From Anaerohalosphaeraceae bacterium (GTDB taxonomy: Bacteria > Planctomycetota > Phycisphaerae > Sedimentisphaerales > Anaerohalosphaeraceae), in assembly GCA_035450485.1 (NCBI GenBank), contig DAOTMV010000012.1:38882-102881 (forward strand): a stretch of 64,000 bases of DNA, written 5' to 3'. Position 1 is the stretch's first letter. Each line of letters opens with the position of its first letter. Below are positions 9,425-61,305 of the stretch, one piece after another. The notes beneath the pieces were generated by a model that searched no databases, was not told the origin of the DNA, and saw only the letters and a program-made list of their open reading frames with translations. Made by a program: the position numbers and the translations under genes.

Positions 9425-10426
9425 TCAGAGGTTTGCTTTCCAGCAGGCGACGAGGTGGCCCGGTGAACCTATGGGACGGAGCTGCTGGACTTCGCGGGTG
9501 CAGCGGGGTGTGGCAACCGGGCAGCGCGGGTGGAACGGGCAGCCGGCGGGCGGGTTGGACGGGCTGGGGACCTCGCCTTTGAGGGTGATGCGTTCGCGGG
9601 TGCGGCGTGGTTCGGGGCGGGGGATGGCGCTCAGGAGGGCACGGGTGTAGGGATGCAGAGGGTTTGCGTATAGTGCGTCGCGGGAGGCGTACTCGACGAT
9701 GCGGCCGAGGTACATGACGGCGACGTCATCGGAGATGTGCTCGACGACGGCGAGGTCGTGGGCGATAAAGAGGTAGGTGAGGCCCATCTCGGCCTGAAGG
9801 TCCTTGAGGAGGTTTATGATCTGGGACTGGATGGAGACGTCAAGGGCGCTGACGGGCTCGTCGCAGACGATGAACTGGGGATCAAGGGCCAGTGCGCGGG
9901 CGATACCGATGCGCTGGCGCTGGCCGCCGGAGAATTCGTGGGGATAGCGGTCGGCGTGATGGGCCGAGAGGCCGACCTTTTCGAGGAGCGCGACGACCTT
10001 GTCTCGCCGTTTGCGGCCGGTGAGGCCATCGTGGACGGTGAGGGCCTCGCCGATGATGCTTTCGACGGTCATTCGAGGGTTGAGGGAGCCGTAGGGGTCC
10101 TGGAAGATGATCTGCATGCGGCGGCGAAGGAGGCGGAGCTGCTCGTCGCGAAGCATGAAGATGTCGCGGCCGGCGTAGATGACACTGCCATCGGTGGCGG
10201 GGATGAGGCGCAGGAGGGTGCGGCCGACGGTGGTCTTTCCACAGCCGCTTTCGCCGACGAGGCCGAGGGTCTTGCCGCGCGGTATGCGGAAGCTGACGCC
10301 GTCAACTGCTTTCACGGAGCCGACGACGCGGCGCAGCAGCCCCTTGCGTATGGGAAAGTGCGTCTTGAGGTCGACGACCTCGATCAGATTTTTCTGCGGA
10401 GCTATCATCTTCTTCCAACTTGTCAT
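9425..10426 (-). CDS. peptide ABC transporter ATP-binding protein (OppF/DppF-like)
   Basis: Walker [10 protein letters not shown], signature FSGGQRQR, Walker B IVCDE, C-terminal oligopeptide-transporter motif CPFHPRCP. Start set at [18 protein letters not shown]; the first ~107 codons of ORF 9425..10747 are a Pro/Ser/Ala-rich artefact. Confidence 0.8.
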
Positions 10427-11426
10427 CTTCGGTTTCGTAGCCGGGGGCGTGCCAACAGGCGACGTTTCGGTCGGGGCGGACGGGGCGAAGTTCGGGTTCC
10501 ATAGTCTGGCAACGGCGGTCGTTTGCGCCGAGGGGGCAGCGAGGGTGGAATTTGCAGCCGGTCGGGAAGTGCAGGGGATCGGGGACCGTGCCGCCGATGA
10601 CGTCGAGGCGCTGGCGGCGGACGCCGAGGCGCGGCAGCGAGCGGAGCAGGCCCTGCGTGTAGGGGTGGAGGGGCTCTTCAAAGATTGCCTCGACGGGGGC
10701 GCTTTCGGCGACGCGCGAGGCATACATGACGACGACTTCGTCGGCATTTTCAGCGACGACGCCGAGGTCGTGGGTGATGAGGAGGACGGACATCTGCGTT
10801 TCGTACTGCAGGCGGCGGATGAGTTCGAGGATCTGGGCCTGGATGGTGACGTCGAGAGCCGTGGTCGGTTCGTCGGCGATGAGCAGCGAAGGGTTGCAGC
10901 TCAAGGCCATTGCGATCATGACGCGCTGACGCATGCCGCCGGACATCTGGTGTGGGTATTCCCTGGCGCGGCGCACGGGATCGGCGATGCCGACGAGCTG
11001 GAGCATGTCGGCGGCACGGCGCCAGGCGTCGGCGTCCTTCATCGGCTGGTGGAGCTGGATGGCCTCGACGATCTGCCGGCCGACGGTGTAGACGGGGTTG
11101 AGGCTTGTCATCGGCTCCTGGAAGATCATGGCGATGTCGTTGCCCCGGACCTGGCGCATTCGATTTTCCTTTGCGTTGAGCAGATCCTGGCGGTTGAACC
11201 AGACGCGGCCGCGGATGATTTTGCCGGGCGGGTCGGGTATGAGACGCAGTATGGACAGGGCTGTGACGCTCTTGCCGCAGCCGCTTTCGCCGACGAGGGC
11301 GACGGTTTTGGCCTTGCCGATGTCGAAGCAGACGTCATTGACGGCGCGGATTTCCCCGGAGTCGGTCTTGAAACTGACCGTGAGATTGCGAATCGACAGA
11401 AGGCTGTCTTTCTTTATGCGGCTCAT
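10302..11426 (-). CDS. peptide ABC transporter ATP-binding protein (OppD/DppD-like)
   Basis: Start MSRIKK overlaps the permease stop by ATGA. Walker A GESGCGKS, signature [16 protein letters not shown]. Has an unusually long acidic C-terminal tail that overlaps the next gene by ~40 codons. Confidence 0.85.
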
Positions 11427-12490
11427 GTCGTGCCTCTCAGTCGTGGATCGATGGCGTCGCGGAGGGCATCGCCGACGAGGTTGTAAGCCAGCACGGCAAG
11501 GAAGATTGCGATGCACGGGGGATAGACCATGTGCGGGGCGACGTTGAGCGAATCGTAAGCGGTGCGGAGGATGTTGCCCCAGGACGGGTCGGGCGGCTGG
11601 ACACCGAAGCCGAGCCAGCTCAAGCCCGCTTCGACGAGGACGGCGTCGGCGATGCCGAAGGTGACACTGACGAGGATAGGAGCCAAGGCGTTGGGGAGGA
11701 TGTGTCGGAACATGATACGTGCGTGGCCGATGCCGAGGGCGCGGGCGGCAGTGACATAGTCCTGGCCCTTGATGCGCATGAATTCGCCGCGTGTGTAGCG
11801 GGCGATGCTTGTCCAGCGGGTCAGGCCGATAACGATCATTACGTTGACGATGTTCGGTTCGAGCCAGACCATGATTGCGAGGATGAGAAAGAAGACCGGG
11901 AAGCAGACGACGATTTCGATGACGCGGCTGATGAGCATATCGACGAGGCCGCCCCAGTAGCCGGCCAGGCCGCCCATGAGGATACCGATGACGGCGGCGA
12001 TGCCCATGGAGACGAAGCCGACCTTGACGGAGACGGCGGCGCCGTGGATCATGCGTGCGGCGAGATCGCGACCGAGTTCGTCGGTGCCGAGCCAGTGGCG
12101 GCTGGAGGGGGGCTGGAGGAATTCGGTGCTTTGTTCGTACTCGTGGTACGGGATGAGCGGCCAGATGGCGAAGGCCTCGGGGTCGAGCTCCTTTTTGGCA
12201 TCGAACTGGGGCAGATTGAAGGGCCTGGGTTTCTCGATCCAGTGCGGCCCGGCGCCTCGGGACTGGAAGATCTCGATAACGGCGGGAAAGTACCAGCGGC
12301 CGTTGTACTTGCAGACGATGGGCTGATTTGTAGCCAGCAGCGGGCTGAAGATCCAGACGGCGAGCATCGCTGCAATGACGATGAGGCCGGCGAGGCCGCG
12401 GCGGTTGCGGCGGACGTTGCGCCAGACGTAACGCCAGTAGTTTTCGGAGGAGGCCTGCGGCTGGGGAAGTGTGATCGTCGGCTCAGTCAT
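11423..12490 (-). CDS. peptide ABC transporter permease (OppC/DppC-like)
   Basis: 355 aa, six TM segments, and an N-terminal OppC_N-like region. Confidence 0.85.
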   Translation of the reverse strand: MTEPTITLPQPQASSENYWRYVWRNVRRNRRGLAGLIVIAAMLAVWIFSPLLATNQPIVCKYNGRWYFPAVIEIFQSRGAGPHWIEKPRPFNLPQFDAKKELDPEAFAIWPLIPYHEYEQSTEFLQPPSSRHWLGTDELGRDLAARMIHGAAVSVKVGFVSMGIAAVIGILMGGLAGYWGGLVDMLISRVIEIVVCFPVFFLILAIMVWLEPNIVNVMIVIGLTRWTSIARYTRGEFMRIKGQDYVTAARALGIGHARIMFRHILPNALAPILVSVTFGIADAVLVEAGLSWLGFGVQPPDPSWGNILRTAYDSLNVAPHMVYPPCIAIFLAVLAYNLVGDALRDAIDPRLRGTT

Positions 12491-13463
12491 AGGCTATCCT
12501 CGGGTCGACGAATGGATAACTGAGGTCGGCAAGGAGCGTACCGAGCAGGACGAGGCATGCGGTGATGAATGTCAGGGCCATGATGGTCGGGTAGTCGCGG
12601 GACATCATGCTCTCGAAGAAGAGCCGGCCCATGCCGGGCCAGTTGAACATGACCTCGAGGATGACGGAGCCGCCGATGATGGACGGCAACAGGAGACCGA
12701 AGAGCGTCATGACGGGGATCAGGGCGTTGCGGAAGCCGTGGCGCATGATGACGTCTCTTTCACGGAGGCCCTTTGCGCGTGCGGTGCGGATGTAATCCTG
12801 TCGGAGAACTTCGAGCATGTTCTGGCGGACGAAACGGGCATAGTAGGCCAGTGCGCCGTAACTGAAGCAGAAGGTAATGAGGGTGTAGTGGCGGACGAGA
12901 TCGACAATCTTGCCGAGGGCGGAGAGCTGTTCGAAATCGTCGGACCTGATGCCCTGGAACGGCAAGAGATTCCACTGGATGGCGACGATGAGGATGAGGG
13001 GCACGGCCATGACGTAGCTTGGGACGGAATAGAGCGCATAGAGGATGGTGCTGCCGGCGGTGTCAAAGAGGCTGTCTTGGCGTGCGGCGGAATAGATGCC
13101 GATGGGGATTGCGACAGCAAGGCTGATGCCGAGTGAGAGTATGGCCAGCGACATGGTGGGCCAGAGGCGCTCGCGGATTTTGTGCCAGACGGGCCGGCGG
13201 TCGGTGGACATGGAGGCGCCGAAGTCGAGACGCACAAGGCGCCAGAGCCACTGGCCGTAGCGTTTGATGATGGGCTGGTCGAGGCCGTAGTACTGGCGCA
13301 GCTCTTCGTAGACGCGGTTAGAGACTTTGCTGTCCATAATGCCCTGTGTCTGGAGCTGGGCCGGGTCGCCGGGGGCCAGGTTGATGATAAAAAAGGTCAC
13401 CAGCGTGATTCCGAACAGCGTCGGAACAGCAAGCAAGACTCTGCGAAGGACATAAGCCAGCAT
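12483..13463 (-). CDS. peptide ABC transporter permease (OppB/DppB-like)
   Basis: 326 aa. MLAYVLRRVLLAVPTLFGITLVTF is the canonical OppB N-terminus. Confidence 0.85.
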   Translation of the reverse strand: MLAYVLRRVLLAVPTLFGITLVTFFIINLAPGDPAQLQTQGIMDSKVSNRVYEELRQYYGLDQPIIKRYGQWLWRLVRLDFGASMSTDRRPVWHKIRERLWPTMSLAILSLGISLAVAIPIGIYSAARQDSLFDTAGSTILYALYSVPSYVMAVPLILIVAIQWNLLPFQGIRSDDFEQLSALGKIVDLVRHYTLITFCFSYGALAYYARFVRQNMLEVLRQDYIRTARAKGLRERDVIMRHGFRNALIPVMTLFGLLLPSIIGGSVILEVMFNWPGMGRLFFESMMSRDYPTIMALTFITACLVLLGTLLADLSYPFVDPRIAYD

Positions 13464-13479
13464 ATCACGTTCACCTGTG

Positions 13480-15240
13480 CTATTGACCGAGCAGCGCGGC
13501 GCTGGGCATCCACCAATTACTGATGCCCGGATCGAAACTCATGATGCCCCTGGGGGAGAACTGCACGCCGCGGATGCGCTTGTTGATCGCGGCGAGGATC
13601 GGACGGTTGTAGATCCACGTGTAGGGCTGCTCGTCATAGAGTATCTTGTGAATTTCCTGGTAGATGAGCCGGCGTTTTTCGGGGTCAAATTCGCGGCGCC
13701 CGGCGGCGAAGAGTTCATCGACGCGCGGATTGGAATAGCCGATGTAGTTGCGGCCGATGTCGTACTGCTCGGTTCGCCAGAGGTCCCAGCCGGTGTCGGG
13801 GTCGGTGCCGGTGCCCCACGCGGCGGTCTGGGCCTGAAATTCGTGCTGGCGGACGCACTTGAGGAAGGAGGACCATTCGAGTGTCCTGGTCTTCATGTCG
13901 ACGCCAAGTTTCTTGAGGTCCTCCTGGAGGATAGCGGCAATCTGCGGGGCGGTCGGCGAGCCCTGAGGGGTCAGGAGGGTAAATTCTAAGCGGACTTTGG
14001 CACCGTCGATGTTCTTGTATCGCCAGCCGTCATTGGGGTTGACGGTCCAGCCGGCCTCATCGAGCAGGGCGGCGGCCTTTTCGAGATCGTAGGGCAGGAG
14101 CTTGATGTCGGGGTTGGCCATCCATGAATCCGGGTGGTAGACACCGTAACACGGACTGGCCAGATTGTAGTAGATCTTGTCGAGGATGCGGGGGATGTTG
14201 AGCGCATGTGTCATGGCCCTGCGGACACGGACATCGGTGAAGAACGGGTTACTGCCGTCCATGTTCCAGCCGATGTAGCCGAAGAGCCATTGCGTGCCCC
14301 ACGCCTTGTAACCAACGTCAGCGAAGGTCCGGGTGTTTGTTTCGCGTGCGAACTGCTGGGCACTGAGGTTCTCAATGACGTGCACCTGGCCTTTCTGGAA
14401 TGCCAGGAGCGACATATTGGAATCGGGGATGATGCGGAAGATGATACGTTTGAAATAGGGCTTCCTGCCCTTGTAGCCGTCCCATCGTTCGACAACGATC
14501 TTGTCGTTTTCTTTCCATTCGACAAGGCGGTATGGTCCGCTTCCGACGGGGTTGCGGGATTGCAAGACGTAATAGTCGCCGCTCCTGAGGTCGGGATTGT
14601 TCTGCTTGTCCTTTTCGTAGATGTGTTTGGGGATGATGGGGAAATGCAGATTCCAGAGGCGCGTCGCAAGGGGTTCGGGCTGGACGTACTTGACGGTGAG
14701 AGGATCAAGGGCGACGCATTCGGTGATGGGCTCGACGCTGGGTTTCTGGGTACCGCAGGGGACGGCGGGGTCAAGTATCTGCCGCCAGGAGAACACGATG
14801 TCGTCGGCGGTGAACGGGTGGCCGTCGTGCCAGGTGAGGCCTGGCTTGATCCTGAGGATGAAAGTGGTGTGGTCCTCGGATTCTTCGAAGGATTCGACCA
14901 CCTCCGTGTTGACCATCCAATTCATGTCTTTGTCAAAGGAAAACGGGCCGGTGTAGAGGACGCCCTGTACGATGCCTTCATATTGGGAACTGGCGAAGAG
15001 CGGATTGAGGGTGTTGGGGTTGCCATCGAGCTGGACGAAGAGCGTTTCATCGGTGTTGATCAAGGCGGGATCGTCCGGCGGCGGCTCGAAGAGCACGGGC
15101 GGATTGACCAGGGGGTCTGTGGTGGGGTCATAGGTTACGTCGGCCGCTTCGGGGCCTGCGGGCGGTTTGCGACATCCCGCCAGCGCGAGCGAAGCGACAA
15201 ACAGGACCGCCGCGATGCGCGGAAGAGACGGTTTGTTCAT
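13480..15240 (-). CDS. ABC transporter substrate-binding protein, family 5 (OppA/DppA-like) lipoprotein
   Basis: Start MNKPSLPRIAAVLFVASLALAGC (lipobox LAGC) is preceded by a GGAG RBS. The family-5 SBP fold is visible throughout. The ORF extension to 15357 is rejected. Confidence 0.85.
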   Translation of the reverse strand: MNKPSLPRIAAVLFVASLALAGCRKPPAGPEAADVTYDPTTDPLVNPPVLFEPPPDDPALINTDETLFVQLDGNPNTLNPLFASSQYEGIVQGVLYTGPFSFDKDMNWMVNTEVVESFEESEDHTTFILRIKPGLTWHDGHPFTADDIVFSWRQILDPAVPCGTQKPSVEPITECVALDPLTVKYVQPEPLATRLWNLHFPIIPKHIYEKDKQNNPDLRSGDYYVLQSRNPVGSGPYRLVEWKENDKIVVERWDGYKGRKPYFKRIIFRIIPDSNMSLLAFQKGQVHVIENLSAQQFARETNTRTFADVGYKAWGTQWLFGYIGWNMDGSNPFFTDVRVRRAMTHALNIPRILDKIYYNLASPCYGVYHPDSWMANPDIKLLPYDLEKAAALLDEAGWTVNPNDGWRYKNIDGAKVRLEFTLLTPQGSPTAPQIAAILQEDLKKLGVDMKTRTLEWSSFLKCVRQHEFQAQTAAWGTGTDPDTGWDLWRTEQYDIGRNYIGYSNPRVDELFAAGRREFDPEKRRLIYQEIHKILYDEQPYTWIYNRPILAAINKRIRGVQFSPRGIMSFDPGISNWWMPSAALLGQ

Positions 15241-43602: not shown

Positions 43603-44289
43603 ATGGGTCTTTTCAAACGCATCCACAGAATCACCGTTGGCCGCATTGAAACCTTCCTCGACCGCGCCGAAGATCCCGAGGTCATCTTCCCGGTGCTCAT
43701 CCAGGAGATGGAAAAGCAGCTTAAGGCGGCGACCGAAGCCGAGGCCAAGGCGTCGGCTGCGGTGAAGGCCGCCCAGCGCGACCTGAAGCGGCAGCAGGAG
43801 AAGGTCGACCGGTTCGGCAAAGGCGCGGCGCAATCGCTTAAGAAAGGCGACGAGGAGACGGCCCGCATGTCGATCGAGGCGCAGATCGAGGCGGAAAAGA
43901 ACCTTGCCGTGGCGCAGCAGAACGTCGATTCGGCGACGGACTCGCTGGACCACGCCAATGCGGCGCGTCGCCGCATCCAGCAGCAGCTTGATGAGCTTCG
44001 CACGCGCAAAGAAGACATCCTCACACGGGCCCGTGTCGCCAAGGCGCAAAAGAAGATTCAGCGGACCGTCAGCGGCTCGGCGGGCTCTACCGACAGCATC
44101 CTCGATGCGGTCGCACGGCTGGAGGCGGGCGTGGAACAGGCCGAGGCGGAGTTGGAAATCCAGGCCAGTTTGACGGGCACCTCCAACGGCAGCCCTTCGC
44201 TGGAAAAATGCCTGCGTGATCTGGACCACGACAGCGAAGTCGAGGCCCGCCTGTCGCAGATTCGCCTGTCGATCGCGGAGAGCGCCTGA
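43603..44289 (+). CDS. PspA/IM30 (Vipp1/ESCRT-III-like) family protein, paralog 1
   Basis: ATG at 43603 with an AGAAAGGAG RBS. MGLFKRIHRITVGRIETFLDRAEDPEVI… is the canonical PspA N-terminus. 228 aa coiled coil. Confidence 0.8.
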   Translation: MGLFKRIHRITVGRIETFLDRAEDPEVIFPVLIQEMEKQLKAATEAEAKASAAVKAAQRDLKRQQEKVDRFGKGAAQSLKKGDEETARMSIEAQIEAEKNLAVAQQNVDSATDSLDHANAARRRIQQQLDELRTRKEDILTRARVAKAQKKIQRTVSGSAGSTDSILDAVARLEAGVEQAEAELEIQASLTGTSNGSPSLEKCLRDLDHDSEVEARLSQIRLSIAESA

Positions 44290-44334
44290 CCGGTTGCCCC
44301 GGTCGGCAATCCACCGGAAGAGAGGAGCAAACCA

Positions 44335-45012
44335 ATGTCCATATTCGAACGCATACAGCGCATCGCCAAGGCGAACGTCAACTGGCTGCTTGACAAGGCC
44401 GAGCCCGCCGAGCAGGAACTGGCCTCCAAGATCAAGGAACTCGAAGAGACGCTTCTCGAAGGACGCGAAAGCGCGGCGACCTATGGCGCGACGTTCCGTC
44501 GGCTCGAAACCGAAATGCAGCAGCTCCAGCAGAAACAGGCCGACCTGACCGCGCAGGCCGAGACGGCGCTCAAGGCCGGAGACGAGACAGCTGCGCGGAA
44601 GGCGCTCGCCGAAAAAGTGCGATTAGCCGAACGGATCGCCCAGATGAAGCCCGGCCTGGACCGCGGCCGGCAGACCTTCGAGATGCTGCGTGACAACATG
44701 ATCAAGCTGCAGGAACAGCTTAAGGCCGCCAAGCTGAAATTCGAGGACCTTAAGGCCCGCAAACGGACCGCCGAGGCCCAGAAGGCCTTTGACAAGCACC
44801 TCAGCCGGGCCGTGGCCTTCAATCCGGACGGCGTCACCTTCGACCGACTCGAAGACCAGGTCCTCCAGTCCGAGGCCGAGGTGCAGATCAACCAGGAACT
44901 CCGCGGCGATTCGCTCACCGAGATCGAACTGGCCCAGAGAGCCCGCGACATGCAGGTCGAAGCGGAACTGGCGGAACTCAGAGAACGCCTCAACCAGGGC
45001 AAAGCCGGATAA
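44335..45012 (+). CDS. PspA/IM30 family protein, paralog 2
   Basis: MSIFERIQRIAKANVNWLLDKAEPAEQEL…, 225 aa. GAGAGGAG RBS. Confidence 0.8.
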   Translation: MSIFERIQRIAKANVNWLLDKAEPAEQELASKIKELEETLLEGRESAATYGATFRRLETEMQQLQQKQADLTAQAETALKAGDETAARKALAEKVRLAERIAQMKPGLDRGRQTFEMLRDNMIKLQEQLKAAKLKFEDLKARKRTAEAQKAFDKHLSRAVAFNPDGVTFDRLEDQVLQSEAEVQINQELRGDSLTEIELAQRARDMQVEAELAELRERLNQGKAG

Positions 45013-45024
45013 GGAGAACCTCCC

Positions 45025-45666
45025 GTGGAACTTCTGCACATGTCCCTGATGCCCGCCAACATTGGCGCGACCGTCTTTCTTGCGATGATACTCGCTTACT
45101 GGCTCACGGTCCTCCTCGGTGCGCTCGATCTGGACTTCCTTGATTTCGATCTTGACGCCGACGTCGACGCCGATCTCGGCAGCGATCTGGATGTCTCCGT
45201 CGGCGTCTTCGACGGCATGCTTGCCTTTTTCTATCTGGGCAAGATCCCACTCATGATCCTCTTGAGCATATTCGCACTCTGCCTCTGGGTCATCTCGATA
45301 ATCGCCAACGGCTATCTCAATCCTTCGGGTTCGCTCGCCCTGGGCTTGCCCCTGGCTGTTGGCAACCTGATCGTTTCGCCGTTCATCTGCAAGGTGATCT
45401 GTGCACCTTTAGCGAGGTTCTTCATGGCTTTGAAAAAAGATCCCAATGCCCCGGCGGACGTTATGGGCCGCATTTGCAGAGTAACCACCTCCCAGGTGTC
45501 TGCGAAAATGGGGCAGGCGGAGGTCTCCACCAGCGGGGCCCCGATACTGCTGAATGTTGTTGCCGACGGCGATCATGTCTTCAAAAAGGGAGACGAAGCC
45601 GTCGTCATCGGAAAAGATGAGAAGAAGGGCGTGCACATCATTGCACCGGTAAATCTGGAGGACTGA
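45025..45666 (+). CDS. YqiJ/NfeD-like membrane protein (OB-fold C-terminal domain)
   Basis: Two TM segments separated by an acidic D/L repeat loop. The C-terminal ~70 aa (…GRICRVTTSQ…GQAEV…DEAVVIGKDEKKGVHIIAPV) has an NfeD-like β-barrel pattern. Sits immediately upstream of the flotillin, as in yqiJK. Start codon is GTG. Confidence 0.6.
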   Translation: MELLHMSLMPANIGATVFLAMILAYWLTVLLGALDLDFLDFDLDADVDADLGSDLDVSVGVFDGMLAFFYLGKIPLMILLSIFALCLWVISIIANGYLNPSGSLALGLPLAVGNLIVSPFICKVICAPLARFFMALKKDPNAPADVMGRICRVTTSQVSAKMGQAEVSTSGAPILLNVVADGDHVFKKGDEAVVIGKDEKKGVHIIAPVNLED

Positions 45667-45668
45667 AC

Positions 45669-47663
45669 ATGTTGGCAGCGGTTCCGTTTGAGCAGTTGAT
45701 TGTGACTTGCGGCATTATTGTTGGTGGTATATTCTTCATCGCTCTCCTACTGTTTGCCAAATGCTGGCGCAAAGTCGCACAGGGTCAGGCACTAATCCGC
45801 AATGGCCTGTGGGGAACACAGGTCAGCTTCTCTGGCAAAATGGTTTTCCCCGTCCTGCACCGCGTCGAGTACATGGACATCTCCGTCAAGCGGATCGAGA
45901 TCGACCGCGGCGGCGCCTCGGGCCTTATCTGCAAGGACAACCTGCGTGCGGACATCAAGGTGGCGTTCTTCGTGCGCGTCAACAATACGGCCGAGGACGT
46001 CAAGAAGGTCGCTCAGGCCTTGGGCTGTATGCGGGCCAGCGACGAACGGGCGCTCTATGAACTCTTCGACGCCAAGTTTTCAGAGGCGCTCAAGACGATC
46101 GGCAAGAAATTCGATTTTGCGGAACTGTACGTCGAACGCGTCAGGTTCAAAGAGGAGATACTGCAGATCATCGGCACGGACCTCAACGGCTACATCCTCG
46201 AAGACGCCGCCATCGACTACCTGGAGCAGACCGACAAGAAGCTGCTCAGCCCCGACAACATCCTCGATGCCGAGGGCATCAAGAAGATCACGGTCCTGAC
46301 GGCCGAGCAATTCGAGCTGGCCAACGCCCGCGAGCGCGAAAAGGACATGACGATCACCAAGCAGAATGTCGAGGCCCAGGAGGCGATCCTCGAACTTAAT
46401 CGCCAGTTGGCCGAGGCGGATGCCAAGCAGAAACGCGAAGTCGCCTCCGTGCAGGCCCGCGAAGAAGCCGAGACCAAGCGCATCCAGGCGCAGGAACGCG
46501 AAAAGGCCGAGAAGGCCCGCATCGTCGCCGACGAAGAGATTGCCGTCGCCGAAGAGAACAAGCTGCGTCAGATCATCGTCGCCGCCAAGAACAAGGAGCG
46601 CACCGAGGCCGTTGAGATCGAACGGGTCGAGCGCGACCGGGGCCTGGAGGCCACCGAGCGCGAGCGGCTGGTCACCATCGCCCAGGTCGAAAAGGACAAG
46701 GTGGTCGAGGGCCAGAGGAAGGAACTGCAGGCGGCCATTCGTGAACGGGTCACTGTCGAGAAGACGGTGGTGAAGGAAGAAGAGAACATCAAGGACACCC
46801 GCGCCTTCGCGGGGGCCGACCGACAGAAAAAGGTCGCCATTACGCAGGCCGAGGAGCAGGCCGAGCAGGCCCTGGTCAAGGACATTAAGGCCGCCGAAGC
46901 CAGCAAGAAGGCCGCCGAGTTCTACGCCGAGCAGCAGATCATCGAGGCCCAGGCCAATCTCGACGCCGCCAGCCGCAACGCCGAGGCCAAGAAGACCATC
47001 GCCGCCGCCGAGGTCAAGGAACATGCCGTTGCGGGCATTGCCGAAGCGGAAGTCATGGAGGCAAAGGCGGCGGCCATCGAGAAACAGGGTACCGCCGAAG
47101 CAAAGGTCATGGAACTGAAGTACCACGCCGAGGCCGACGGGATTCGCGACAAGGCCGAAGCGATGAAGATCTTCGATGCGGTCGGCAAGGAGCACGAAGA
47201 GTTCAAGATCCGCATCAACAAAGACAAGGAAGTGGAACTGGCAAGCATCAACGTACAGAAGGACATTGCAGCCGAACAGGCAAAGATCGTGGCCGAGGCC
47301 CTCAAGAGCGCCCGCATCGACATCGTCGGCGGCGACAACAACTTCTTCAATCGGCTGGTCAACTCCATCACAACCGGCAAGGCCGTGGACCGTATGATCG
47401 AAAACAGCGATGCGCTGACCGGCCTCAAGAACACGCTGTTGGGCGGCGACGCGGAACTGAACCGTGAGAACATCCGCCGCTTCATCGATCAGTTTGGCCT
47501 GTCGGCGGAGGATATCAAGAACCTCTCCGTCAGTGCCCTGGTCGTCAAGCTCATGGCCGACGCCGACGAAGGCAGGAAGGGCCTGCTCAGCCGCATCCTG
47601 CACGCGGCCAAGGAAATAGGCATCGCCGATATGCCGGCGGAAAAACTCCTGGCGGAAAAGTAA
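45669..47663 (+). CDS. flotillin / SPFH (band-7) family protein, YqiK-like
   Basis: 664 aa. N-terminal TM helix, an SPFH domain, and a very long Ala/Glu/Lys-rich coiled coil (the flotillin EA-repeat region). GGAGGA RBS. Confidence 0.85.
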   Translation: MLAAVPFEQLIVTCGIIVGGIFFIALLLFAKCWRKVAQGQALIRNGLWGTQVSFSGKMVFPVLHRVEYMDISVKRIEIDRGGASGLICKDNLRADIKVAFFVRVNNTAEDVKKVAQALGCMRASDERALYELFDAKFSEALKTIGKKFDFAELYVERVRFKEEILQIIGTDLNGYILEDAAIDYLEQTDKKLLSPDNILDAEGIKKITVLTAEQFELANAREREKDMTITKQNVEAQEAILELNRQLAEADAKQKREVASVQAREEAETKRIQAQEREKAEKARIVADEEIAVAEENKLRQIIVAAKNKERTEAVEIERVERDRGLEATERERLVTIAQVEKDKVVEGQRKELQAAIRERVTVEKTVVKEEENIKDTRAFAGADRQKKVAITQAEEQAEQALVKDIKAAEASKKAAEFYAEQQIIEAQANLDAASRNAEAKKTIAAAEVKEHAVAGIAEAEVMEAKAAAIEKQGTAEAKVMELKYHAEADGIRDKAEAMKIFDAVGKEHEEFKIRINKDKEVELASINVQKDIAAEQAKIVAEALKSARIDIVGGDNNFFNRLVNSITTGKAVDRMIENSDALTGLKNTLLGGDAELNRENIRRFIDQFGLSAEDIKNLSVSALVVKLMADADEGRKGLLSRILHAAKEIGIADMPAEKLLAEK

Positions 47664-47775
47664 CCTGGATCGATGATGAGAAGCCGCGCCGGGCGTGACG
47701 GGCATATCGGCAACGATGTGCGGTCTCGTCCGGCGCTGCGGCCTCTGCGGCCACGGAATACAGAGAAGTCCGACA

Positions 47776-50700
47776 ATGGTGGAGAACAACGAAACGACCC
47801 CGATGCCGCATGACAATGCGGCCGACGCCGCGCTTCAAGGCGGGGCTTACGAGGTGATTCGCAAGCGTCTCGAGACCCATGGCCGCGAACTGCGGCAGCG
47901 TATGGTGAAACTGAACGCAGCCCGCAAGGATGTTTTCGGGGCGATCGAGTCCCGGCTGATCGCGGCCGAGCGCGTCACGACAAGCAACAACTGCATTCCG
48001 CGCGACATGATCCCGGTCGGCGACCGCTTCATCTTCGGTTACAACGTGTTCGTGGGCCTTAGGACCGAAACGACCCTGGCCGATGTGTTCTCGATTTATC
48101 GGCTTGTGGACGGCCAGTTCGTCGAATGCCCGCTTGAGCTGATCGAAGACGAGCGGTTCATCGCCGACTTCAAGAACCTCTTCAAATACTATCGCCACAC
48201 CACCTTCGCGAAGTTCGCCATCCGGGGCCCACACTTGTTCATGGTGTTCAGCATCGGCAAAAGCGCCGCAGACATCAAGACGTTTAAGTGGCTCATCACC
48301 GAGGGACGTCTTCGGTACCTCGATAACCGCAGCGACCATGAGCTCGTCTATCCGGCCCAGCACCAGTTCGAGTGGATCCGCACCACACAGGACATGCACC
48401 GCAGCGGCCTCAATCCGCACATCTCCATCGAAGAGCGTGTGTTCGTCGAAACCATCGGCGGCGACCTGACCATCAAAATCGAAGACAACACCGAGACCGG
48501 ACAGGGCATCTATTCCGAACCCGTGGACGACCCCGACCAGACGCTCATTGACGCCGAGATATACTACGCCATCATCGGCAATATCATCCTGCTGAAGATC
48601 CGCCCCTACCAGGAAGAGAATTTCCGTTACATTGTCTACAGCGAAAAAACGCGCCGCGCCGTTCGCATCGACTCCATCAAGGACGCCTGTGTGCTTCTGC
48701 CGCAGGGCCAGGGCCTCGTTTTCCCGCGGGGCTATTACCTGCAGACGGGTGAGACCCGGCAGTTCGAAACCAATGTAACCAACATGGTCTTCGAGAAATG
48801 CATCGCCTCGCCCAACGGCGAAGACTTCCTGTACCTCTTCTACAACCACGAAAACGGCGTCTACCTGCTGCTTCCGTACAATCTCATCGAGCAAAGCATG
48901 AGCACGCCGCTGATCTGTAACGGATTCTCCGTGTTCGATGACGGAACACTCATCTGCCTGCGGGCCGGCAGCGAACCGCAGAAGCATCACGCCGTCCAGA
49001 TCTGGAAAACCCCCTACTACGGTCCCGACCACACAATCGAAGTCTTGAAGGACGCGCCGCTTTACAAGATCGGCAACACAGCCATCGTGCGATGCATGGC
49101 CGAGTGCACGGAACTGTTGAACCTGTTGGCTAAAGACGAGTCCTATGCGAACCTGTACGTCGATATCGCCCGCAAGGCCCAGGACATTTGCGACAGTTAC
49201 TTCTGGCTGGGCGACGCGGAGGTCTTCAATCTGGCCGAGCCGCTTGGCAATATCCAGAAAGCCGCCAGCGCGGCGATCGAGGAGTTCGAGAAGGTTGTCC
49301 GCACCCGGCGAAACACCCAGAATGAAATAGATGCCGCGGCGCGCCAGGTCACAGAGGCGATCGCGGCCATTGACTACGACGCCCTCAACAACATCGATCT
49401 TTATGTAAACCATCTGGCGCAACTGCGGGCGCTGCGGGGCCGCGTCGTCTCGCTCAAGGATTTGCGGTACGCCGACCTGGAAACCGTCGAGAAACTCGAA
49501 ACCGAGGTCGCCCAGCACACGGACCGGCTCAGTTCGCTCTGTATACGGTTCCTTCTTGACCCGGAGGCGCTGGCGCCCTACCGGCGCCGCATCGACGAAC
49601 AGTCCGCACAGGTCGACAAGACACAGAAGGTCACCGAGGCCAGGGAGCTATCCGAGCGGGTTGACGAAACAGCCGCTCAACTGGAGATGCTCACCGAGAT
49701 CGTCAGCAATCTGAAGATCGAGGACGCCACCCAGACCGTTGCCGTCATCGACAATATTTCGCTGGTGTACTCGCGGCTCAACCAGGTCCGCAGCGCGCTG
49801 AAGAACCGCATTAACGAACTCGGTACAGTGGAAGGCCAGGCTGAATTTGCCGCCCAGATCAAGCTCCTTGACCAGTCCGTCATCAATTACCTCGATGTCT
49901 GCGACACACCTGAGAAGTGCGACGAGTATCTAACGAAGATAACCGTGCAGCTCGAAACGCTTGAAAGCCGGTTCGCCGACTTTGACGAATTCATCGGCCG
50001 CCTGACGGAGAAGCGCGAAGAGCTTTACAACGCATTCGAAAGCCGCAAGGTCCAGATCGTCGCACACCGTAACCAGCGGGCCTCGGCCCTCATGGCGGCC
50101 GCCGAGCGAGTCCTCAAGGGCATTGAAAACCGCCTCCGCAGCTTCAGCGACATTAATGAGATCAACGGCTACTTCGCTTCCGACCTCATGGTTCAGCGGG
50201 TCCATGACGCAGTGGAACAGTTGCTTGAGTTGGGCGACACCGTCAAGGCTGAGGATATCAGGACGCGCCTAAAGGCGCTCCAGCAGGATGCGGTGCGTCA
50301 GCTCAAGGACCGTCAGGCGCTCTTTGTCGACGGCGACAATATCATTCGCCTCGGCCGTCATCGCTTCCGTGTCAATCGTCAGCCGCTGGAAGGCACGATC
50401 GTCCGCCGCGGCGACAAGATGTTCTATCACCTTACCGGCACCGGCTTCTTCGAGGAGATCACCGATGAAGCACTGCTGGCGGCCCGCGACGCATGGGACC
50501 TCGAAGTGCCGTCGGAAAGCCCTGAGGTCTACCGGGCCGAGTACCTTGCGTATCTCATGCTGCAGGATGCGTCGGTGGATGCACAGTCGCTTGCTGCGGC
50601 CGAATTCGAGCAGGTGCTCGCCCGTGTCCAGGCCTTCATGGGCCCGCGCTACGAAGAAGGCTACATCAAGGGCGTACACGACCACGATGCGGCCAGGATT

Positions 50701-53181
50701 CTTCAGTCACTGGTACAAATGCGGGCCGAGATCGGCCTGCTGCGCTACCCCACGCAGGCCCGTGCGCTGGCCGCGGCCTTCTGGATGCTGTCCGATGAGG
50801 TCGACGCCAAAGCACGGCTGGCATCCCGCATCGCCGCCGCCGGGCGCATCCGCGAATTGTTTGACGATTCCGCGATCGAAAGCCTGTATGTCAGCCAGCT
50901 TACCGACTTGCTGAGCACGTTTGTCGATGAAACCGGCGTGTTCGACTCCAAATGGATCGCTCCGGCCGCGGAGTATCTTTTTTGCGAGCTGGCCAATCCC
51001 GATGATTCGGGCTTCGCCGTAAGCCGCATCGCCGTGGACATCCGTGCCGCTTTTGAGGATCATCTCCGAAAGCGCCGCTTTGTACAGCGTTTCGCGCAGG
51101 CCGACAACGCACTTTCGGGCGATCCTTTGGGTCGTTTGCGTCTGTTGACCGACTGGGTCGGAGCGTTCCTTCGCACAAGTGACGGCGCGAAACTCGAGTA
51201 TGCCGACGAAGTCGCCGTCCTGATGCTTGACGAGAAGGCGCAAAACCGACCTGTTATCGACAAGCCCATTGAGCGGCAACTCAGCGGGATACTCGGTTCA
51301 CACCCCCGCATCGTTCAGGCAGGACTTGAACTGAACTACTGCGATTTCATGACACGGCTGAACCATCATGCACAGCACATCGTGCCCCGCTTTGTCGAAT
51401 TCCGTCGGATCAAGCAAGACCTGGTGGAACAGTACGCCGAGCGTCTCCGCCTTGATGAGTTCAAGCCGCGTGTGCTGTCGACCTTCGTCCGCAACAAGCT
51501 CATCGACAAGGTCTACCTGCCCCTGATCGGCGATAATCTGGCCAAACAGATCGGTTCCGCCGACGAGACGAAGCGCACCGACACGCAAGGCCTGCTGCTG
51601 CTGATCAGCCCGCCCGGCTACGGCAAGACCACCCTGATGGAATATATGGCCAACCGTTTAGGCCTGACCTTCATGAAGATCAACGGGCCGGCCATCGGCA
51701 GCCATGTCACGGCGCTTGACCCGGCGACCGCCCCCAACTCAGCCGCCCGCGAAGAGCTTCAGAAGCTCAATCTTGCCTTCGAGATGGGCGACAACGTCAT
51801 GATTTACATCGACGACATTCAGCATACCAACCCGGAGTTCCTGCAAAAGTTCATTTCGCTCTGCGATGCCCAGCGGCGCATCGAGGGCGTCTTCGGCGGC
51901 AGGCCAAGAACATACGACCTCCGTGGAAAACGCGTCTGCGCCGTCATGGCCGGCAACCCGTACACCGAAAGCGGCGAGAAATTCAAGATACCCGACATGT
52001 TAGCCAACCGTGCCGACACGTACAATATTGGCGATATCGTCGGGGACAACCGCGAAGAATTCGTCTCCAGCTACGTGGAAAATTGCCTTACGTCCAACCC
52101 CGTGCTGCAGTCGCTGGCGATGCGCAGCCAGAAGGACGTGTACACCGTGATGAAAATCGCCGAGACCGGGCGACAGGACAACATGGAATTCGAGGCTAAC
52201 TACAGCGCCGATGAACTCGACGAGTATGTCGCGACAATGAAAAAGCTCTTCGTCGTTCGCGAGGTGCTGCTCAAGGTCAACCAGCAGTACATCGCCTCGG
52301 CGGGGCAAAACGACGCCTACCGCACCGAGCCGCCCTTCCTGCTGCAAGGCTCCTACCGTAACATGAACCGTATCGCCGCACGCGTTCTGCCTGTCATGAA
52401 TGACGACGAGTTGTGGACGCTCATCGTGTCGAGCTACGAGCAGGATGCACAGACACTCACCACCGGAGCTGAAGCCAACATGCTCAAATTTCGTGAACTC
52501 ATCGGGCATCTGACCGATGAACAAGCCAGGCGGTGGAGCGATATCAAGAAGACCTTCACACGCAATCTGCTGCTTGGCGCCGACACCGACGACCGTGTCG
52601 GAAAGATCATCGGCCAGCTCAATGCCTTCAGCGCAGGGCTGGACGGGATCAGGGACGTCCTGGCGGAAGGCATCGCCGCCGCCCGGCATAAGGAGGAGAA
52701 CGCCTGCCGCCAACAGGCGGAAGACGCCGCCCGACAGGTTGAAAAGAGCAGCCGTGATGATGCTGTACAAATTTTGGGTCGACAGGTACTTGATCGATTG
52801 GGTGAAGTCATCGCCGCCTTGAAGGAACGCCAGAAGGCACAGCAAGACCAGGAACAAACAGCCGAAATCAGGCGTCATGACGAGAACACCCGTATGCTCG
52901 TCACCGTACTCGAAGAACAGTTCAAAACGATGGAAACGTGGCTCATTCCGGTGCACCACAGTGACGCCGATCGCAGGGCGTACTTCCAGCACCTCGTTGG
53001 ACGTTTCCAGGAGATGGTGGATGGCTATACGCGGTTAATCGAGGCACTGCGCAACAAGTACGAACCGTTGCTGCGCAGCGAGGCGCCTGTATACCCAACG
53101 AGTAAAGACGAACAACCGAAGTCATCGCCGCCGCCAAAGCGGAACCAGAACAAATCGAAGGACAACCCTAAAAAGCAGTGA
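47776..53181 (+). CDS. giant (~1800 aa) multidomain protein with embedded MoxR/AAA_5-type AAA+ ATPase domain; function unknown
   Basis: Single uninterrupted ORF with good codon periodicity. Start at MVENNETTPM; an alternative start is 47803. AAA+ core around ORF residues ~1290-1480: Walker A LLLISPPGYGKTTL, Walker B VMIYIDDIQH, sensor-1 AVMAGNPY, and IPDMLANRADTYNI resembling the MoxR L..LDRF motif. Flanked by a β-rich N-domain, ~500 aa of coiled coil and a K/P-rich tail. Confidence 0.7.
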   Translation: MVENNETTPMPHDNAADAALQGGAYEVIRKRLETHGRELRQRMVKLNAARKDVFGAIESRLIAAERVTTSNNCIPRDMIPVGDRFIFGYNVFVGLRTETTLADVFSIYRLVDGQFVECPLELIEDERFIADFKNLFKYYRHTTFAKFAIRGPHLFMVFSIGKSAADIKTFKWLITEGRLRYLDNRSDHELVYPAQHQFEWIRTTQDMHRSGLNPHISIEERVFVETIGGDLTIKIEDNTETGQGIYSEPVDDPDQTLIDAEIYYAIIGNIILLKIRPYQEENFRYIVYSEKTRRAVRIDSIKDACVLLPQGQGLVFPRGYYLQTGETRQFETNVTNMVFEKCIASPNGEDFLYLFYNHENGVYLLLPYNLIEQSMSTPLICNGFSVFDDGTLICLRAGSEPQKHHAVQIWKTPYYGPDHTIEVLKDAPLYKIGNTAIVRCMAECTELLNLLAKDESYANLYVDIARKAQDICDSYFWLGDAEVFNLAEPLGNIQKAASAAIEEFEKVVRTRRNTQNEIDAAARQVTEAIAAIDYDALNNIDLYVNHLAQLRALRGRVVSLKDLRYADLETVEKLETEVAQHTDRLSSLCIRFLLDPEALAPYRRRIDEQSAQVDKTQKVTEARELSERVDETAAQLEMLTEIVSNLKIEDATQTVAVIDNISLVYSRLNQVRSALKNRINELGTVEGQAEFAAQIKLLDQSVINYLDVCDTPEKCDEYLTKITVQLETLESRFADFDEFIGRLTEKREELYNAFESRKVQIVAHRNQRASALMAAAERVLKGIENRLRSFSDINEINGYFASDLMVQRVHDAVEQLLELGDTVKAEDIRTRLKALQQDAVRQLKDRQALFVDGDNIIRLGRHRFRVNRQPLEGTIVRRGDKMFYHLTGTGFFEEITDEALLAARDAWDLEVPSESPEVYRAEYLAYLMLQDASVDAQSLAAAEFEQVLARVQAFMGPRYEEGYIKGVHDHDAARILQSLVQMRAEIGLLRYPTQARALAAAFWMLSDEVDAKARLASRIAAAGRIRELFDDSAIESLYVSQLTDLLSTFVDETGVFDSKWIAPAAEYLFCELANPDDSGFAVSRIAVDIRAAFEDHLRKRRFVQRFAQADNALSGDPLGRLRLLTDWVGAFLRTSDGAKLEYADEVAVLMLDEKAQNRPVIDKPIERQLSGILGSHPRIVQAGLELNYCDFMTRLNHHAQHIVPRFVEFRRIKQDLVEQYAERLRLDEFKPRVLSTFVRNKLIDKVYLPLIGDNLAKQIGSADETKRTDTQGLLLLISPPGYGKTTLMEYMANRLGLTFMKINGPAIGSHVTALDPATAPNSAAREELQKLNLAFEMGDNVMIYIDDIQHTNPEFLQKFISLCDAQRRIEGVFGGRPRTYDLRGKRVCAVMAGNPYTESGEKFKIPDMLANRADTYNIGDIVGDNREEFVSSYVENCLTSNPVLQSLAMRSQKDVYTVMKIAETGRQDNMEFEANYSADELDEYVATMKKLFVVREVLLKVNQQYIASAGQNDAYRTEPPFLLQGSYRNMNRIAARVLPVMNDDELWTLIVSSYEQDAQTLTTGAEANMLKFRELIGHLTDEQARRWSDIKKTFTRNLLLGADTDDRVGKIIGQLNAFSAGLDGIRDVLAEGIAAARHKEENACRQQAEDAARQVEKSSRDDAVQILGRQVLDRLGEVIAALKERQKAQQDQEQTAEIRRHDENTRMLVTVLEEQFKTMETWLIPVHHSDADRRAYFQHLVGRFQEMVDGYTRLIEALRNKYEPLLRSEAPVYPTSKDEQPKSSPPPKRNQNKSKDNPKKQ

Positions 53182-53217
53182 CGGCCCGGCCGTATTGCGG
53201 GCGAAAGCATAGAACAC

Positions 53218-53910
53218 ATGGGAAGGATCGCAAACCTCAGAAAAATTACCAAGGCGCGCATTGACGCGTTCTTGAACAGTATCGAGCGGCCGGAACGTAT
53301 CCTGCCGCAACTCGAAAAGGAAATGTCCCAGAAGGTTGCCGAGGCAGCCAAGGCCGAGGCAAAAGCGCTGGCGGCGGTGCGCGGGGCCCAGCGGCGCGTC
53401 GACGAAGCGGCCGGACGGGCAATGCGGCTGGAAAAGGGGGTAAAGCAGGCGATAACCGCCGGCGACATGGAAACGGCCCGCCGCGCAGTGGCCGCGCTTG
53501 TGGAGGCCGAGAAGGACACGGAACGTCTTCGCGCGGCGCTCGATACCGCTCACACAGCGTATCTCGATGCAGGCGCCGTTCGAAAACAGCTCGCCGACAC
53601 CCTCAACGATCTGAAGGCCCGCAGGAAGGACATCATCGACAGAAGTCGTCGTGTGGAATTGCAGAAGGCGATTCAGACGAATCGAGCGCTTGGCATCGCC
53701 GATGGCACAGAAATCCTCGACGTTGTCGCCCGTATGGAAGCAAGACTCGACCATGACGAGACCCTGATCGAAGCCGCCAACCATCTCCGGCCGACACTTG
53801 ACCTGACGCTGGATAGCGATATACTGAAACAGAGACTCCACGATGCAGAGGTCGAGGCGCGGTTGGCCGAACTGAAGGCCAAATACATGCCGCCGGCCAA
53901 CGGAGAGTAA
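53218..53910 (+). CDS. PspA/IM30 family protein, paralog 3
   Basis: MGRIANLRKITKARIDAFLNSIERPERILPQLEKEM… is a PspA-like N-terminus. 230 aa coiled coil. Confidence 0.75.
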   Translation: MGRIANLRKITKARIDAFLNSIERPERILPQLEKEMSQKVAEAAKAEAKALAAVRGAQRRVDEAAGRAMRLEKGVKQAITAGDMETARRAVAALVEAEKDTERLRAALDTAHTAYLDAGAVRKQLADTLNDLKARRKDIIDRSRRVELQKAIQTNRALGIADGTEILDVVARMEARLDHDETLIEAANHLRPTLDLTLDSDILKQRLHDAEVEARLAELKAKYMPPANGE

Positions 53911-53937
53911 CAAGGTCTGGAGGGCCTGGGGAGCAGG

Positions 53938-55200
53938 ATGAACACCGTAAGAGCGCTTCTTCTTTTCATTACTGCGCTGGGGATGCCAGCAGCGCCCCTC
54001 GCCGCCGACGGTCTCATCGCTTCCCCCGAGGATGGCTGGCCTCAATGGCGCGGTCCGAGACGTGATGGAATATCCACTGAAACGGGGCTTCTGCAGGCAT
54101 GGCCAGCGGAGGGGCCGCGGCTCCTGTGGAAGATAGGCGAACTCGGCCGGGGATGGTCGTCGCCCATCATTGTCAACGGTCGGCTTTATATCACGGGGGA
54201 CGCAGGCGATGACCTCGTAATCTTTGCCTTCGACACAGACGGCAAGCCCCTCTGGCGAGCCACAAACGGCAAGGCGTGGAAAGGGCCGTACCCCGGAGCA
54301 CGGGCTGCGTGCACGTTTTCCGAAGGCAAAATCTATAACATGAGTGCGCACGGGCGGGTGACCTGTCTCGATGCCGCATCAGGACGTGAACTGTGGGCGC
54401 TGGACATTCTCGAGCATTTCAGCGCCAAGAACATCACGTGGGCCTTGAGCGAGTGCCTGCTGGTGTACGGCCCGCGGCTCATCGTGACGCCAGGCGGGCC
54501 GAAGGCGCTGATGGCGGCGCTGCACAAGGACGATGGACATGTGCTGTGGAGCACGCCTCCCCTGCGCGAAGAAAACACATCTCATTGTTCTCCCATTCTG
54601 TTCGAGTACGCAGGCCGACGGATTGTCAGCAACTGCTCGGCGTCCTGCGGCTTTGGTCTGGATGCCGACACCGGTAAGCTGCTTTGGACAGTACCGTTGA
54701 AGAACCCGTACGGCACGAACGTCGCCACGCCTGTTTACGGCCGCGGGGCCGTTTACTACGTCACGCCCTATACGGAGATGGGGCGATGCTATCGTCTGCG
54801 TGCTAATGGGGACAAGATCGCCGCCGAGCATCTCTGGATCTCTTGCCTGGATACCGTCACAGGCTGCGCGGTCCTCGTTGATGGCGTGCTCTACGCCGCC
54901 AACTACAACCGGCCGAAGTGGTGGTTCGCCGTTGACTGGCAAACAGGAGAAACGCTGTACGAATGCCGAGAATTTACCACCGGCGCGGCCGTTTATGCCG
55001 ATGGCCGCCTGTACATCCTCGACGAAAGCGGCCAGGTCGGGCTCCTGAAGCCCACCAGAGACGGCCTGCAGATCCATGGCCGATTCTCACTCACCGACAG
55101 GAAAGTCAGGGATGCCTGGGCCCATCCGGTCATCCTCGATGGCCGGCTGTATCTCCGCTACCACGACACGCTGTTCTGCTACGATATTAGACAACGCTGA
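53938..55200 (+). CDS. secreted PQQ-like beta-propeller repeat protein
   Basis: Signal peptide. Repeated W..RG…G.(L/I)Y….DG.L.(A/C).D..TG..LW motifs. 27-nt gap after the third pspA. Confidence 0.65.
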   Translation: MNTVRALLLFITALGMPAAPLAADGLIASPEDGWPQWRGPRRDGISTETGLLQAWPAEGPRLLWKIGELGRGWSSPIIVNGRLYITGDAGDDLVIFAFDTDGKPLWRATNGKAWKGPYPGARAACTFSEGKIYNMSAHGRVTCLDAASGRELWALDILEHFSAKNITWALSECLLVYGPRLIVTPGGPKALMAALHKDDGHVLWSTPPLREENTSHCSPILFEYAGRRIVSNCSASCGFGLDADTGKLLWTVPLKNPYGTNVATPVYGRGAVYYVTPYTEMGRCYRLRANGDKIAAEHLWISCLDTVTGCAVLVDGVLYAANYNRPKWWFAVDWQTGETLYECREFTTGAAVYADGRLYILDESGQVGLLKPTRDGLQIHGRFSLTDRKVRDAWAHPVILDGRLYLRYHDTLFCYDIRQR

Positions 55201-61202: not shown

Positions 61203-61250
61203 TACGCCCGGCAGGATTCGAACCTGCGACCTTCGGTTTAGGAAACCGAC
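61203..61250 (-). tRNA. truncated tRNA-Arg(CCU) 3' fragment (anticodon stem to discriminator), attachment-site repeat
   Basis: Minus-strand sense: G-TCGGT-TTCCTAA-ACCGA-AGGTC-GCAGG-TTCGAAT-CCTGC-CGGGCGT-A. This gives the anticodon arm (U33, anticodon CCU, A37), variable loop, T-arm with a canonical TTCGAAT loop and the 3' acceptor strand. No matching 5' acceptor strand or D-arm is present upstream, where AT-rich DNA begins. Confidence 0.7.
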
Positions 61251-61305
61251 AACATAATTACATAAAATCTTTACAGTAAATAACTTATGGATTTCTCTGT
61301 TTTTA

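Follow-up and report, generated by a model that had tools for sequence, protein, structure and literature searches.

Bacterial PspA and Vipp1 proteins are homologues of ESCRT-III, and we know of no account of how the flotillin scaffolds of bacteria are assembled and recycled. According to a 2025 review, a Vps4-like ATPase "appears absent in bacteria", and none is known for bacterial PspA (PMC7619361). The closest described system is the CesT/Tir-PspA-YqiJ/YuaF-Band-7/flotillin operon, to which Ravi et al. (2024, mSystems; PMC11237479) devoted one descriptive passage. It includes a protein given as 'β-propeller + coiled-coil + AAA-ATPase', abbreviated versions of the operon without PspA are more widespread, and the supplementary table of that study holds an example from Dokdonia donghaensis (ANH61663.1) with the same gene order. 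Its authors proposed chaperone-like and ESCRT-like roles, and a part in assembling membrane complexes. Here we analyze a 64,000-nucleotide stretch of contig DAOTMV010000012.1 from an Anaerohalosphaeraceae bacterium (Planctomycetota, class Phycisphaerae, order Sedimentisphaerales), hereafter the window, which encodes a giant AAA+ ATPase of the same family, known in Pfam as DUF3686. The ATPase gene is in tight genetic linkage with the genes of a membrane-anchored flotillin/NfeD pair and, in this operon, with three ESCRT-III-like PspA genes, and we lean slightly towards the view that its product uses ATP to remodel flotillin and/or PspA scaffolds.

A giant ATPase and its partner genes

The locus shares with the operon of Ravi et al. 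the ATPase family, its domain order and the upstream YqiJ-like and SPFH/flotillin genes. It differs from that operon in lacking a CesT/Tir gene, in carrying three PspA paralogues, two upstream and one downstream of the ATPase gene, and in its lineage-specific C-terminus, a coiled coil that ends in a Lys/Pro tail. Whereas Ravi et al. left the AAA+ module unclassified, our structural models place it with MoxR-type folds.

Linkage to the partner genes was quantified in a synteny sample made up of the 80 best-scoring of at least 593 loci. In 63 of the 66 loci with enough flanking sequence (~95%), the gene immediately 5′ of the ATPase gene is an SPFH gene, and in 54 of the 63 loci whose flank reaches far enough, a YqiJ-like gene precedes the SPFH gene. 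This triad extends across at least seven phyla in the sample, often with intergenic gaps of less than 60 nt, and can also be found in the Pseudomonas fluorescens plasmid pQBR103, Proteus mirabilis, Vibrio campbellii and Deinococcus grandis. Streptomyces has a flotillin gene ahead of the ATPase gene, and no YqiJ-like gene was detected at the locus. Neighbours were clustered after removal of shadow open reading frames (ORFs) that overlap the Glu/Ala-rich flotillin gene; the clusters scanned held no VWA gene and no further universal partner, and no other AAA+ or MoxR gene was found in the window or the related loci. Sulfatase, PSD1/DUF1501, SDR and ABC ATPase genes recur as neighbours and were judged to be lineage background, not parts of the system.

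PspA is a recurrent, facultative neighbour, detected in 17 of the 80 loci (~21%) by a custom iterated hidden Markov model applied within ±10 kb, a procedure that may under-count; plain phmmer searches with the PspA sequences of the window under-detected PspA in other loci. In two close relatives (L001 and L004), a PspA gene likewise lies 3′ of the ATPase gene. Ten Bacteroidota loci (L015, L020, L021, L023, L032, L035, L036, L042, L060 and L069) share a conserved gene of ~140 codons in the operon run, one scanned representative of which matches CesT_Tir_1. This gene forms the upstream end of the operon, about 3.5–5.5 kb 5′ of the ATPase gene, and PspA was detected in nine of the ten loci. A divergent gene for a LexA-like repressor (HTH_3 + Peptidase_S24) adjoins it in all ten, which suggests operon control by a cleavable repressor. 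The triad together with its three PspA genes is the decisive evidence on the system, and was absent from an earlier, preliminary description of the window made from its sequence alone.

Two further observations concern the surroundings of the triad. A PLD-like (PLDc_2, HKD) gene, one representative of which was scanned against Pfam, lies close to it in five loci (L020, 3271–3975 on the reverse strand; L024; L067; L069; L072), and PLD was noted near the operon in some Proteobacteria by Ravi et al. (2024; PMC11237479). On pQBR103, a megaplasmid of P. fluorescens SBW25 (L081; NC_009444.1, 84437–97641), a 10-gene run unites the two PspA operon classes of Ravi et al., in the order YjfI, PspA, rhomboid protease, DUF2491, DUF350, DUF1190, glutathionylspermidine-synthase-like, YqiJ-like, SPFH and giant ATPase.

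In the window, seven same-strand genes separated by short gaps form a run from 43603 to 55200 (Table 1), of which PspA paralogue 1 is probably the first gene of the operon. The YqiJ-like protein falls slightly short of the Pfam cut-off (YqiJ_N, E=3e-4). The 664-residue product of the gene between it and the ATPase gene has one N-terminal hydrophobic segment and no Pfam match of its own; four of its 29 orthologues match Band_7 (best E 3.4e-13), its family profile matches the SPFH protein QmcA in the PDB, and its RefSeq orthologues are named "SPFH domain-containing" or "flotillin family". From these sequence relationships, we classify it as a divergent flotillin/YqiK-like scaffold. NCBIfam returned nothing above its cut-offs for either protein. 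The PQQ_2/BamB-like gene begins 27 nt after PspA paralogue 3 and is the last of the run; its membership of the system is uncertain, since other loci do not keep it beside the ATPase gene. It is followed, after a gap of 358 nt, by carB.

For the ATPase gene, the ORF list gave an open frame of 1,828 codons counted from a GTG (47695–53181, forward strand), and the internal ATG at 47776 agrees with the start of a public protein (P0001, 1,801 residues, "DNA repair ATPase", from an Anaerohalosphaeraceae metagenome-assembled genome, MAG) that is identical over its full length (100% identity, 100% coverage). The product has a mass of ~200 kDa and is cytosolic, with no hydrophobic segment of transmembrane strength in a hydrophobicity scan. 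The long antisense ORFs over the gene are ordinary shadow frames in a sequence of 59% G+C. The preliminary description had proposed one real open frame of more than 5.4 kb, and the coordinates, the match to P0001 and the colinear homologues all bear this out. It had also allowed for an artefact in which several ordinary genes were fused by mis-assembly or a hidden frameshift. Nothing but the unusual length speaks for such an artefact, and we regard it as refuted, since the databases hold over 4,700 matching proteins at E≤1e-10, mostly full-length and colinear, some of them encoded on closed replicons of cultured bacteria and in complete genomes of isolates. Among the 120 matches listed, most are 1,750–1,890 residues long, are colinear with the query over 97–100% of its length and share its set of Pfam domains. 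In one Rubripirellula MAG (L040, 9908–15229), the orthologous gene is present as three consecutive ORFs (9908–12244, 12248–12481 and 12485–15229), which reflects either a pseudogene or sequencing errors.

The giant ATPase is therefore neither an artefact nor, as had been supposed from its length and architecture, unusual for bacteria. It is a member of a known and widespread family, already represented in Pfam (by its own models DUF3686 and DUF7902), in NCBI and in one paper of comparative genomics. Scanned at one genome per species, at least 593 genomes proved to hold DUF3686-family relatives, including Planctomycetota, Bacteroidota, Verrucomicrobiota, Desulfobacterota, Clostridia, Omnitrophota and Kiritimatiellota, with further members in Gammaproteobacteria, Actinomycetota and Deinococcota; the family spans about ten phyla and forms 732 clusters at 50% identity. 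Copies occur on megaplasmids or plasmids, namely pQBR103 and those of Streptomyces, Deinococcus and Hymenobacter. Pfam describes DUF3686 as "ATPase involved in DNA repair", and the NCBI product name is "DNA repair ATPase". The family is known, but it brings no established function with it: our literature searches brought up no experiments with a member, and a full-text search found no paper that mentions its Pfam names (DUF3686, PF12458). Searches on the partner proteins together with AAA+ led only to Ravi et al. (2024) and to general reviews.

Domain anatomy and the AAA+ module

Two overlapping AlphaFold2 models of high confidence, built on 81-sequence alignments, cover residues 1–900 (predicted local distance difference test, pLDDT, 85.8) and 870–1640 (pLDDT 88.7; predicted template modelling score, pTM, 0.76). 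They and the profile matches agree with the domain order of the preliminary description, from a β-rich N-terminal domain through a helical region and an AAA+ core to a helical, Lys/Pro-rich C-terminus. The N-terminal domain aligns with the whole DUF3686 profile (positions 1–448 of 448; 609.5 bits, where the cut-off is 25; E=4e-183), consists in the model of ~27 strands across residues 60–411 preceded by a helix (residues 24–54), and is N-terminal in the full-length matches listed (1,600–1,930 residues). The coiled coil of ~500 residues that had been described next is indeed a long helical region, but not one continuous coil: the model breaks it into helices of 10–58 residues with short breaks between them, and heptad-type periodicity is enriched only at residues ~450–800 of the arm region. 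A small β unit follows, whose strands appear in both models, and then an all-helical middle domain that matched nothing in Pfam or in PDB sequence searches; a predicted β-hairpin and a long linker helix connect the latter to the AAA+ module. Beyond that module, heptad signal is seen at residues 1550–1650 and 1700–1750, and the final 41-residue tail contains 20% Lys and 20% Pro, in keeping with the composition first described. Fewer than 25 residues lie beyond position 1625 in 30 of 78 relatives, and the C-terminal coiled coil and tail are lineage-specific. NCBIfam returned nothing above cut-off for the giant ATPase.

When the model of residues 1–900 (47776–50475) was searched with Foldseek, clathrin heavy chain, IFT-A and Elp1 were among the longest-aligned weak matches. 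Like membrane-coat proteins, these place a β-propeller ahead of helical repeats; the TM-scores do not exceed 0.2, and the likeness is therefore one of domain order only.

The protein contains a single AAA+ module, deep inside the chain as the preliminary description had it. Across 78 of 78 sequences, drawn from several phyla, Walker A, the Asp-Asp of Walker B, sensor-1 N1394 and the arginine finger R1412 do not vary, and by these intact motifs the giant protein would be competent as an ATPase. Walker B reads Asp-Asp followed by Ile-Gln-His, instead of the usual Asp-Glu, in all 78 relatives. Pfam offers weak generic matches at residues ~1265–1400 (AAA PF00004, 30.9 bits; AAA_22, 28.5; RuvB_N, 26.5; AAA_5, 25.8 against a cut-off of 22), so that PF00004 and AAA_22 score as well as AAA_5 or better, and none to AAA_3. 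PDB searches, whether started from one sequence or from a profile of 19, matched p97, VAT and RuvB over only ~40 residues around Walker A; this P-loop-centred similarity is therefore uninformative on the AAA+ clade.

Structure gives a clearer placement. With the large and lid subdomains aligned together, the modelled AAA+ fold is closest to solved MoxR proteins, the nearest being CbbQ (6l1q) and NorQ (9qh4). The predicted β-hairpin at residues 1369–1380 falls between α3 and β4, and a conserved 18-residue insert between β2 and α2 (residues 1304–1321) forms a loop and no hairpin in the model. The MoxR/AAA_5 assignment made from the sequence thus holds at the level of the fold, but the sequence is not that of a typical MoxR protein: identity to CbbQ and NorQ is only 13–17%, AAA_3 does not match, and a VWA domain was found neither in the protein (Pfam) nor among its neighbours in the window, whereas CbbQ and NorQ have VWA/MIDAS partners of the CbbO or NorD type. 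They are also proteins of ~260 residues, against 1,801 here, lack the Asp-Asp Walker B, and serve metalloenzymes where the partners of the giant ATPase are membrane scaffolds.

The likeness to dynein and midasin that had been suggested does not hold. Midasin (Rea1) and dynein each concatenate six AAA+ modules, and their stalk or linker emerges from the AAA ring. The giant ATPase has one module and no MIDAS domain, and its helical arm lies ~400 residues N-terminal to the AAA+ core, separated from it by the β unit and the helical domain of 230 residues. The AlphaFold2 models also show that the arm is not inserted in the core. The analogy fails because of these two properties, the single module and the arm outside the core.

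Table 1. Features of the ATPase gene, its product and the surrounding operon, in window coordinates
Feature	Residues	Position	Strand	Basis and remarks
DUF3592 protein, 504 aa		40823-42337	+	
Stand-alone P-loop NTPase, 188 aa		42714-43280	+	weak AAA_22, AAA_24 and nSTAND matches
PspA/IM30 paralogue 1		43603..44289	+	Pfam PspA_IM30 E=7e-25; ATG, AAGGAG ribosome-binding site
PspA/IM30 paralogue 2		44335..45012	+	Pfam E=5e-27; 29% identical to paralogue 1
YqiJ/YuaF (NfeD-like) membrane protein		45025..45666	+	~3 transmembrane segments and C-terminal soluble domain
SPFH/flotillin-like protein, 664 aa		45669..47663	+	N-terminal membrane anchor, SPFH domain, Glu/Ala-rich coiled coil
Giant ORF, DUF3686-family AAA+ ATPase	1-1801	47776..53181	+	ATG start, 1801 aa and stop codon (53179-53181)
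N-terminal β-rich domain (DUF3686)	38-476	47887..49203	+	Pfam; predicted irregular β-propeller-like fold
Helical arm	428-849	49057..50322	+	AlphaFold2; ~12 helices, spectrin-like or coiled-coil hairpins
DUF7902, inside helical arm	597-680	49564-49815	+	Pfam, 96 bits, E=1e-27
Small β unit	856-894	50341..50457	+	AlphaFold2; five strands
All-helical middle domain	~920-1151	50533..51228	+	AlphaFold2, pLDDT >90
AAA+ module, MoxR-type fold	~1265-1600	51568..52575	+	Pfam, AlphaFold2
Walker A, SPPGYGKTT	1278-1286	51607-51633	+	
Walker B, D1346-D1347	1346-1347	51811-51816	+	
β-hairpin before sensor 1	1369-1380			
Sensor 1, N1394	1394	51955-51957	+	
Arginine finger, R1412	1412	52009-52011	+	
GSYR motif	includes R1528			in AAA+ module
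C-terminal helical/coiled-coil segment and tail	~1607-1760 and 1761-1801	52594..53178	+	sequence, composition
PspA/IM30 paralogue 3		53218..53910	+	Pfam E=1.8e-15; starts 36 nt past ATPase stop
Exported PQQ_2/BamB-like β-propeller protein		53938..55200	+	Pfam PQQ_2 E=9e-25; signal-peptide-like N-terminus
tRNA-like Rfam match		61208-61276	-	30.2 bits, gathering score 29; no ARAGORN call

Two genes upstream of the operon, for a DUF3592 protein and a stand-alone P-loop NTPase, are separated from PspA paralogue 1 by ~320 nt. Rfam and tRNA scans found nothing within or close to the operon; a tRNA-like match lies further downstream. Scans for promoter and terminator consensus sequences were uninformative on high-GC planctomycete sequence.

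Proposed scaffold remodelling and competing explanations

We propose that the giant ATPase remodels flotillin and/or PspA scaffolds at the expense of ATP. The MoxR-type AAA+ module would oligomerise into a ring, as suggested by the invariance of Walker A, the sensor-1 Asn and a trans-acting Arg, the last of which points to oligomer-dependent hydrolysis. The propeller-like N-domain and the ~400-residue helical arm could dock this ring on the cytoplasmic face of a flotillin/NfeD assembly, where ATP hydrolysis would remodel, open or recycle the flotillin scaffold. Where PspA is also encoded, ATP turnover might in addition remodel the PspA polymers that seal the stressed membrane during envelope stress. 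That the protein forms an oligomer, which protein it contacts and which way it remodels are inferences on our part. The proposal is favoured by the complementary properties of the proteins, the giant ATPase being without a transmembrane segment and the YqiJ-like and SPFH partners both membrane-anchored, and SPFH proteins are cited, in PMC7619361 among other sources, as recruiting PspA in B. subtilis.

The proposed role would be analogous to that of Vps4 on ESCRT-III, or of FtsH with HflK/C cages. As in the Vps4/ESCRT-III systems of archaea and eukaryotes, an AAA+ ATPase is encoded beside several genes of the ESCRT-III superfamily, a linkage seen here in 17 of the 80 loci, and the shared role would be the remodelling of polymers at membranes. 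The giant ATPase has neither the N-terminal MIT domain nor the classical-clade AAA fold of Vps4. In HflK/C-FtsH and prohibitin-m-AAA, an SPFH cage is paired with an AAA+ machine; here the genes of an SPFH scaffold and of an AAA+ enzyme are coupled, and the profile of the scaffold matches QmcA.

Several observations weigh against such a remodeller. Gene order is the sole basis for supposing physical contact with flotillin or PspA. The Asp-Asp Walker B could mean slow or regulated hydrolysis, or a switch-like cycle instead of a motor-like one. Known MoxR ATPases act together with VWA/MIDAS partners, and neither the protein nor its conserved neighbourhood contains one. Finally, 63 of the 80 loci have no PspA in their 10-kb neighbourhood, and PspA is therefore not an obligatory substrate.

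The last point bears most directly on the idea of a dedicated disassembly ATPase for PspA, the bacterial ESCRT-III, which would act as a Vps4 analogue with flotillin/NfeD as a membrane platform only. Three PspA paralogues flank the gene in the window, PspA stands beside the triad in the minority of loci counted above and on pQBR103, the reviews know of no bacterial equivalent of Vps4 (PMC7619361), and ESCRT-like analogues were suggested by Ravi et al. (PMC11237479), so that we consider this specialised role possible, if improbable. A little less probable again, in our judgement, is a chaperone for client membrane proteins that are matured, inserted or extracted in flotillin microdomains, with the scaffold not itself the target. 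MoxR proteins are maturation chaperones, and the fold of the AAA+ module is of their type. Bacterial flotillin is reported to hold unfolded membrane proteins (PMC11222466), and a role in membrane-complex assembly was among the proposals of Ravi et al. (PMC11237479); the conserved neighbourhood, however, contains neither a client gene nor a VWA adaptor.

Defence systems often include giant coiled-coil NTPases, and a large coiled-coil ATPase that senses infection and triggers a membrane response could be part of an anti-phage or conflict system, for which the copies on megaplasmids and the PLD genes near a few loci might speak. We think this very unlikely: PADLOC matched only LmuB over the coiled-coil region (E 2.9e-6) and nothing in the partners, the neighbours are housekeeping genes and not those of defence islands, and the triad is kept across phyla with an invariable set of partners. 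The literal sense of the Pfam and NCBI names, an ATPase of DNA repair, is more improbable still. Apart from the names, it has in its favour a weak similarity to RuvB centred on Walker A, which, like that to p97, amounts to ~40 residues around the P-loop; Pfam and NCBIfam gave no sign of a nuclease or DNA-binding domain, the genes conserved beside it encode membrane proteins, and we found no paper that ties the family to repair. "DNA repair ATPase" is probably a misnomer.

The remodelling proposal can be carried further than the evidence favours. The family might be the missing motor that remodels and disassembles both flotillin/SPFH cages and PspA polymers, a counterpart of Vps4 that arose independently from MoxR-type AAA+ proteins and grips its scaffold with a coat-protein-like arm of β-propeller and helical repeats. 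We regard this fuller version as speculative and, taken as a whole, unlikely; if it were true, operons with three PspA paralogues, such as the one described here, would be complete bacterial 'ESCRT-like' repair machines.

Implications for the family

As both the family and its operon are already present in Pfam, in NCBI and in one paper, the window adds a PspA-rich example and a classification of the fold, and not a new kind of system. To the published description we add a model-based placement of the AAA+ module beside CbbQ and NorQ, the invariant Asp-Asp Walker B, a quantified linkage to flotillin and to PspA, and evidence that the prevailing name is probably wrong, a misnomer that affects thousands of database entries. 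A giant AAA+ protein with intact motifs that nearly always shares its locus with flotillin/NfeD, and repeatedly with PspA as well, is a credible candidate for the ATPase of these scaffolds. Homologues occur in tractable bacteria, including Proteus mirabilis, Vibrio campbellii, P. fluorescens (pQBR103), Streptomyces and Hymenobacter, and the hypothesis is therefore directly testable.

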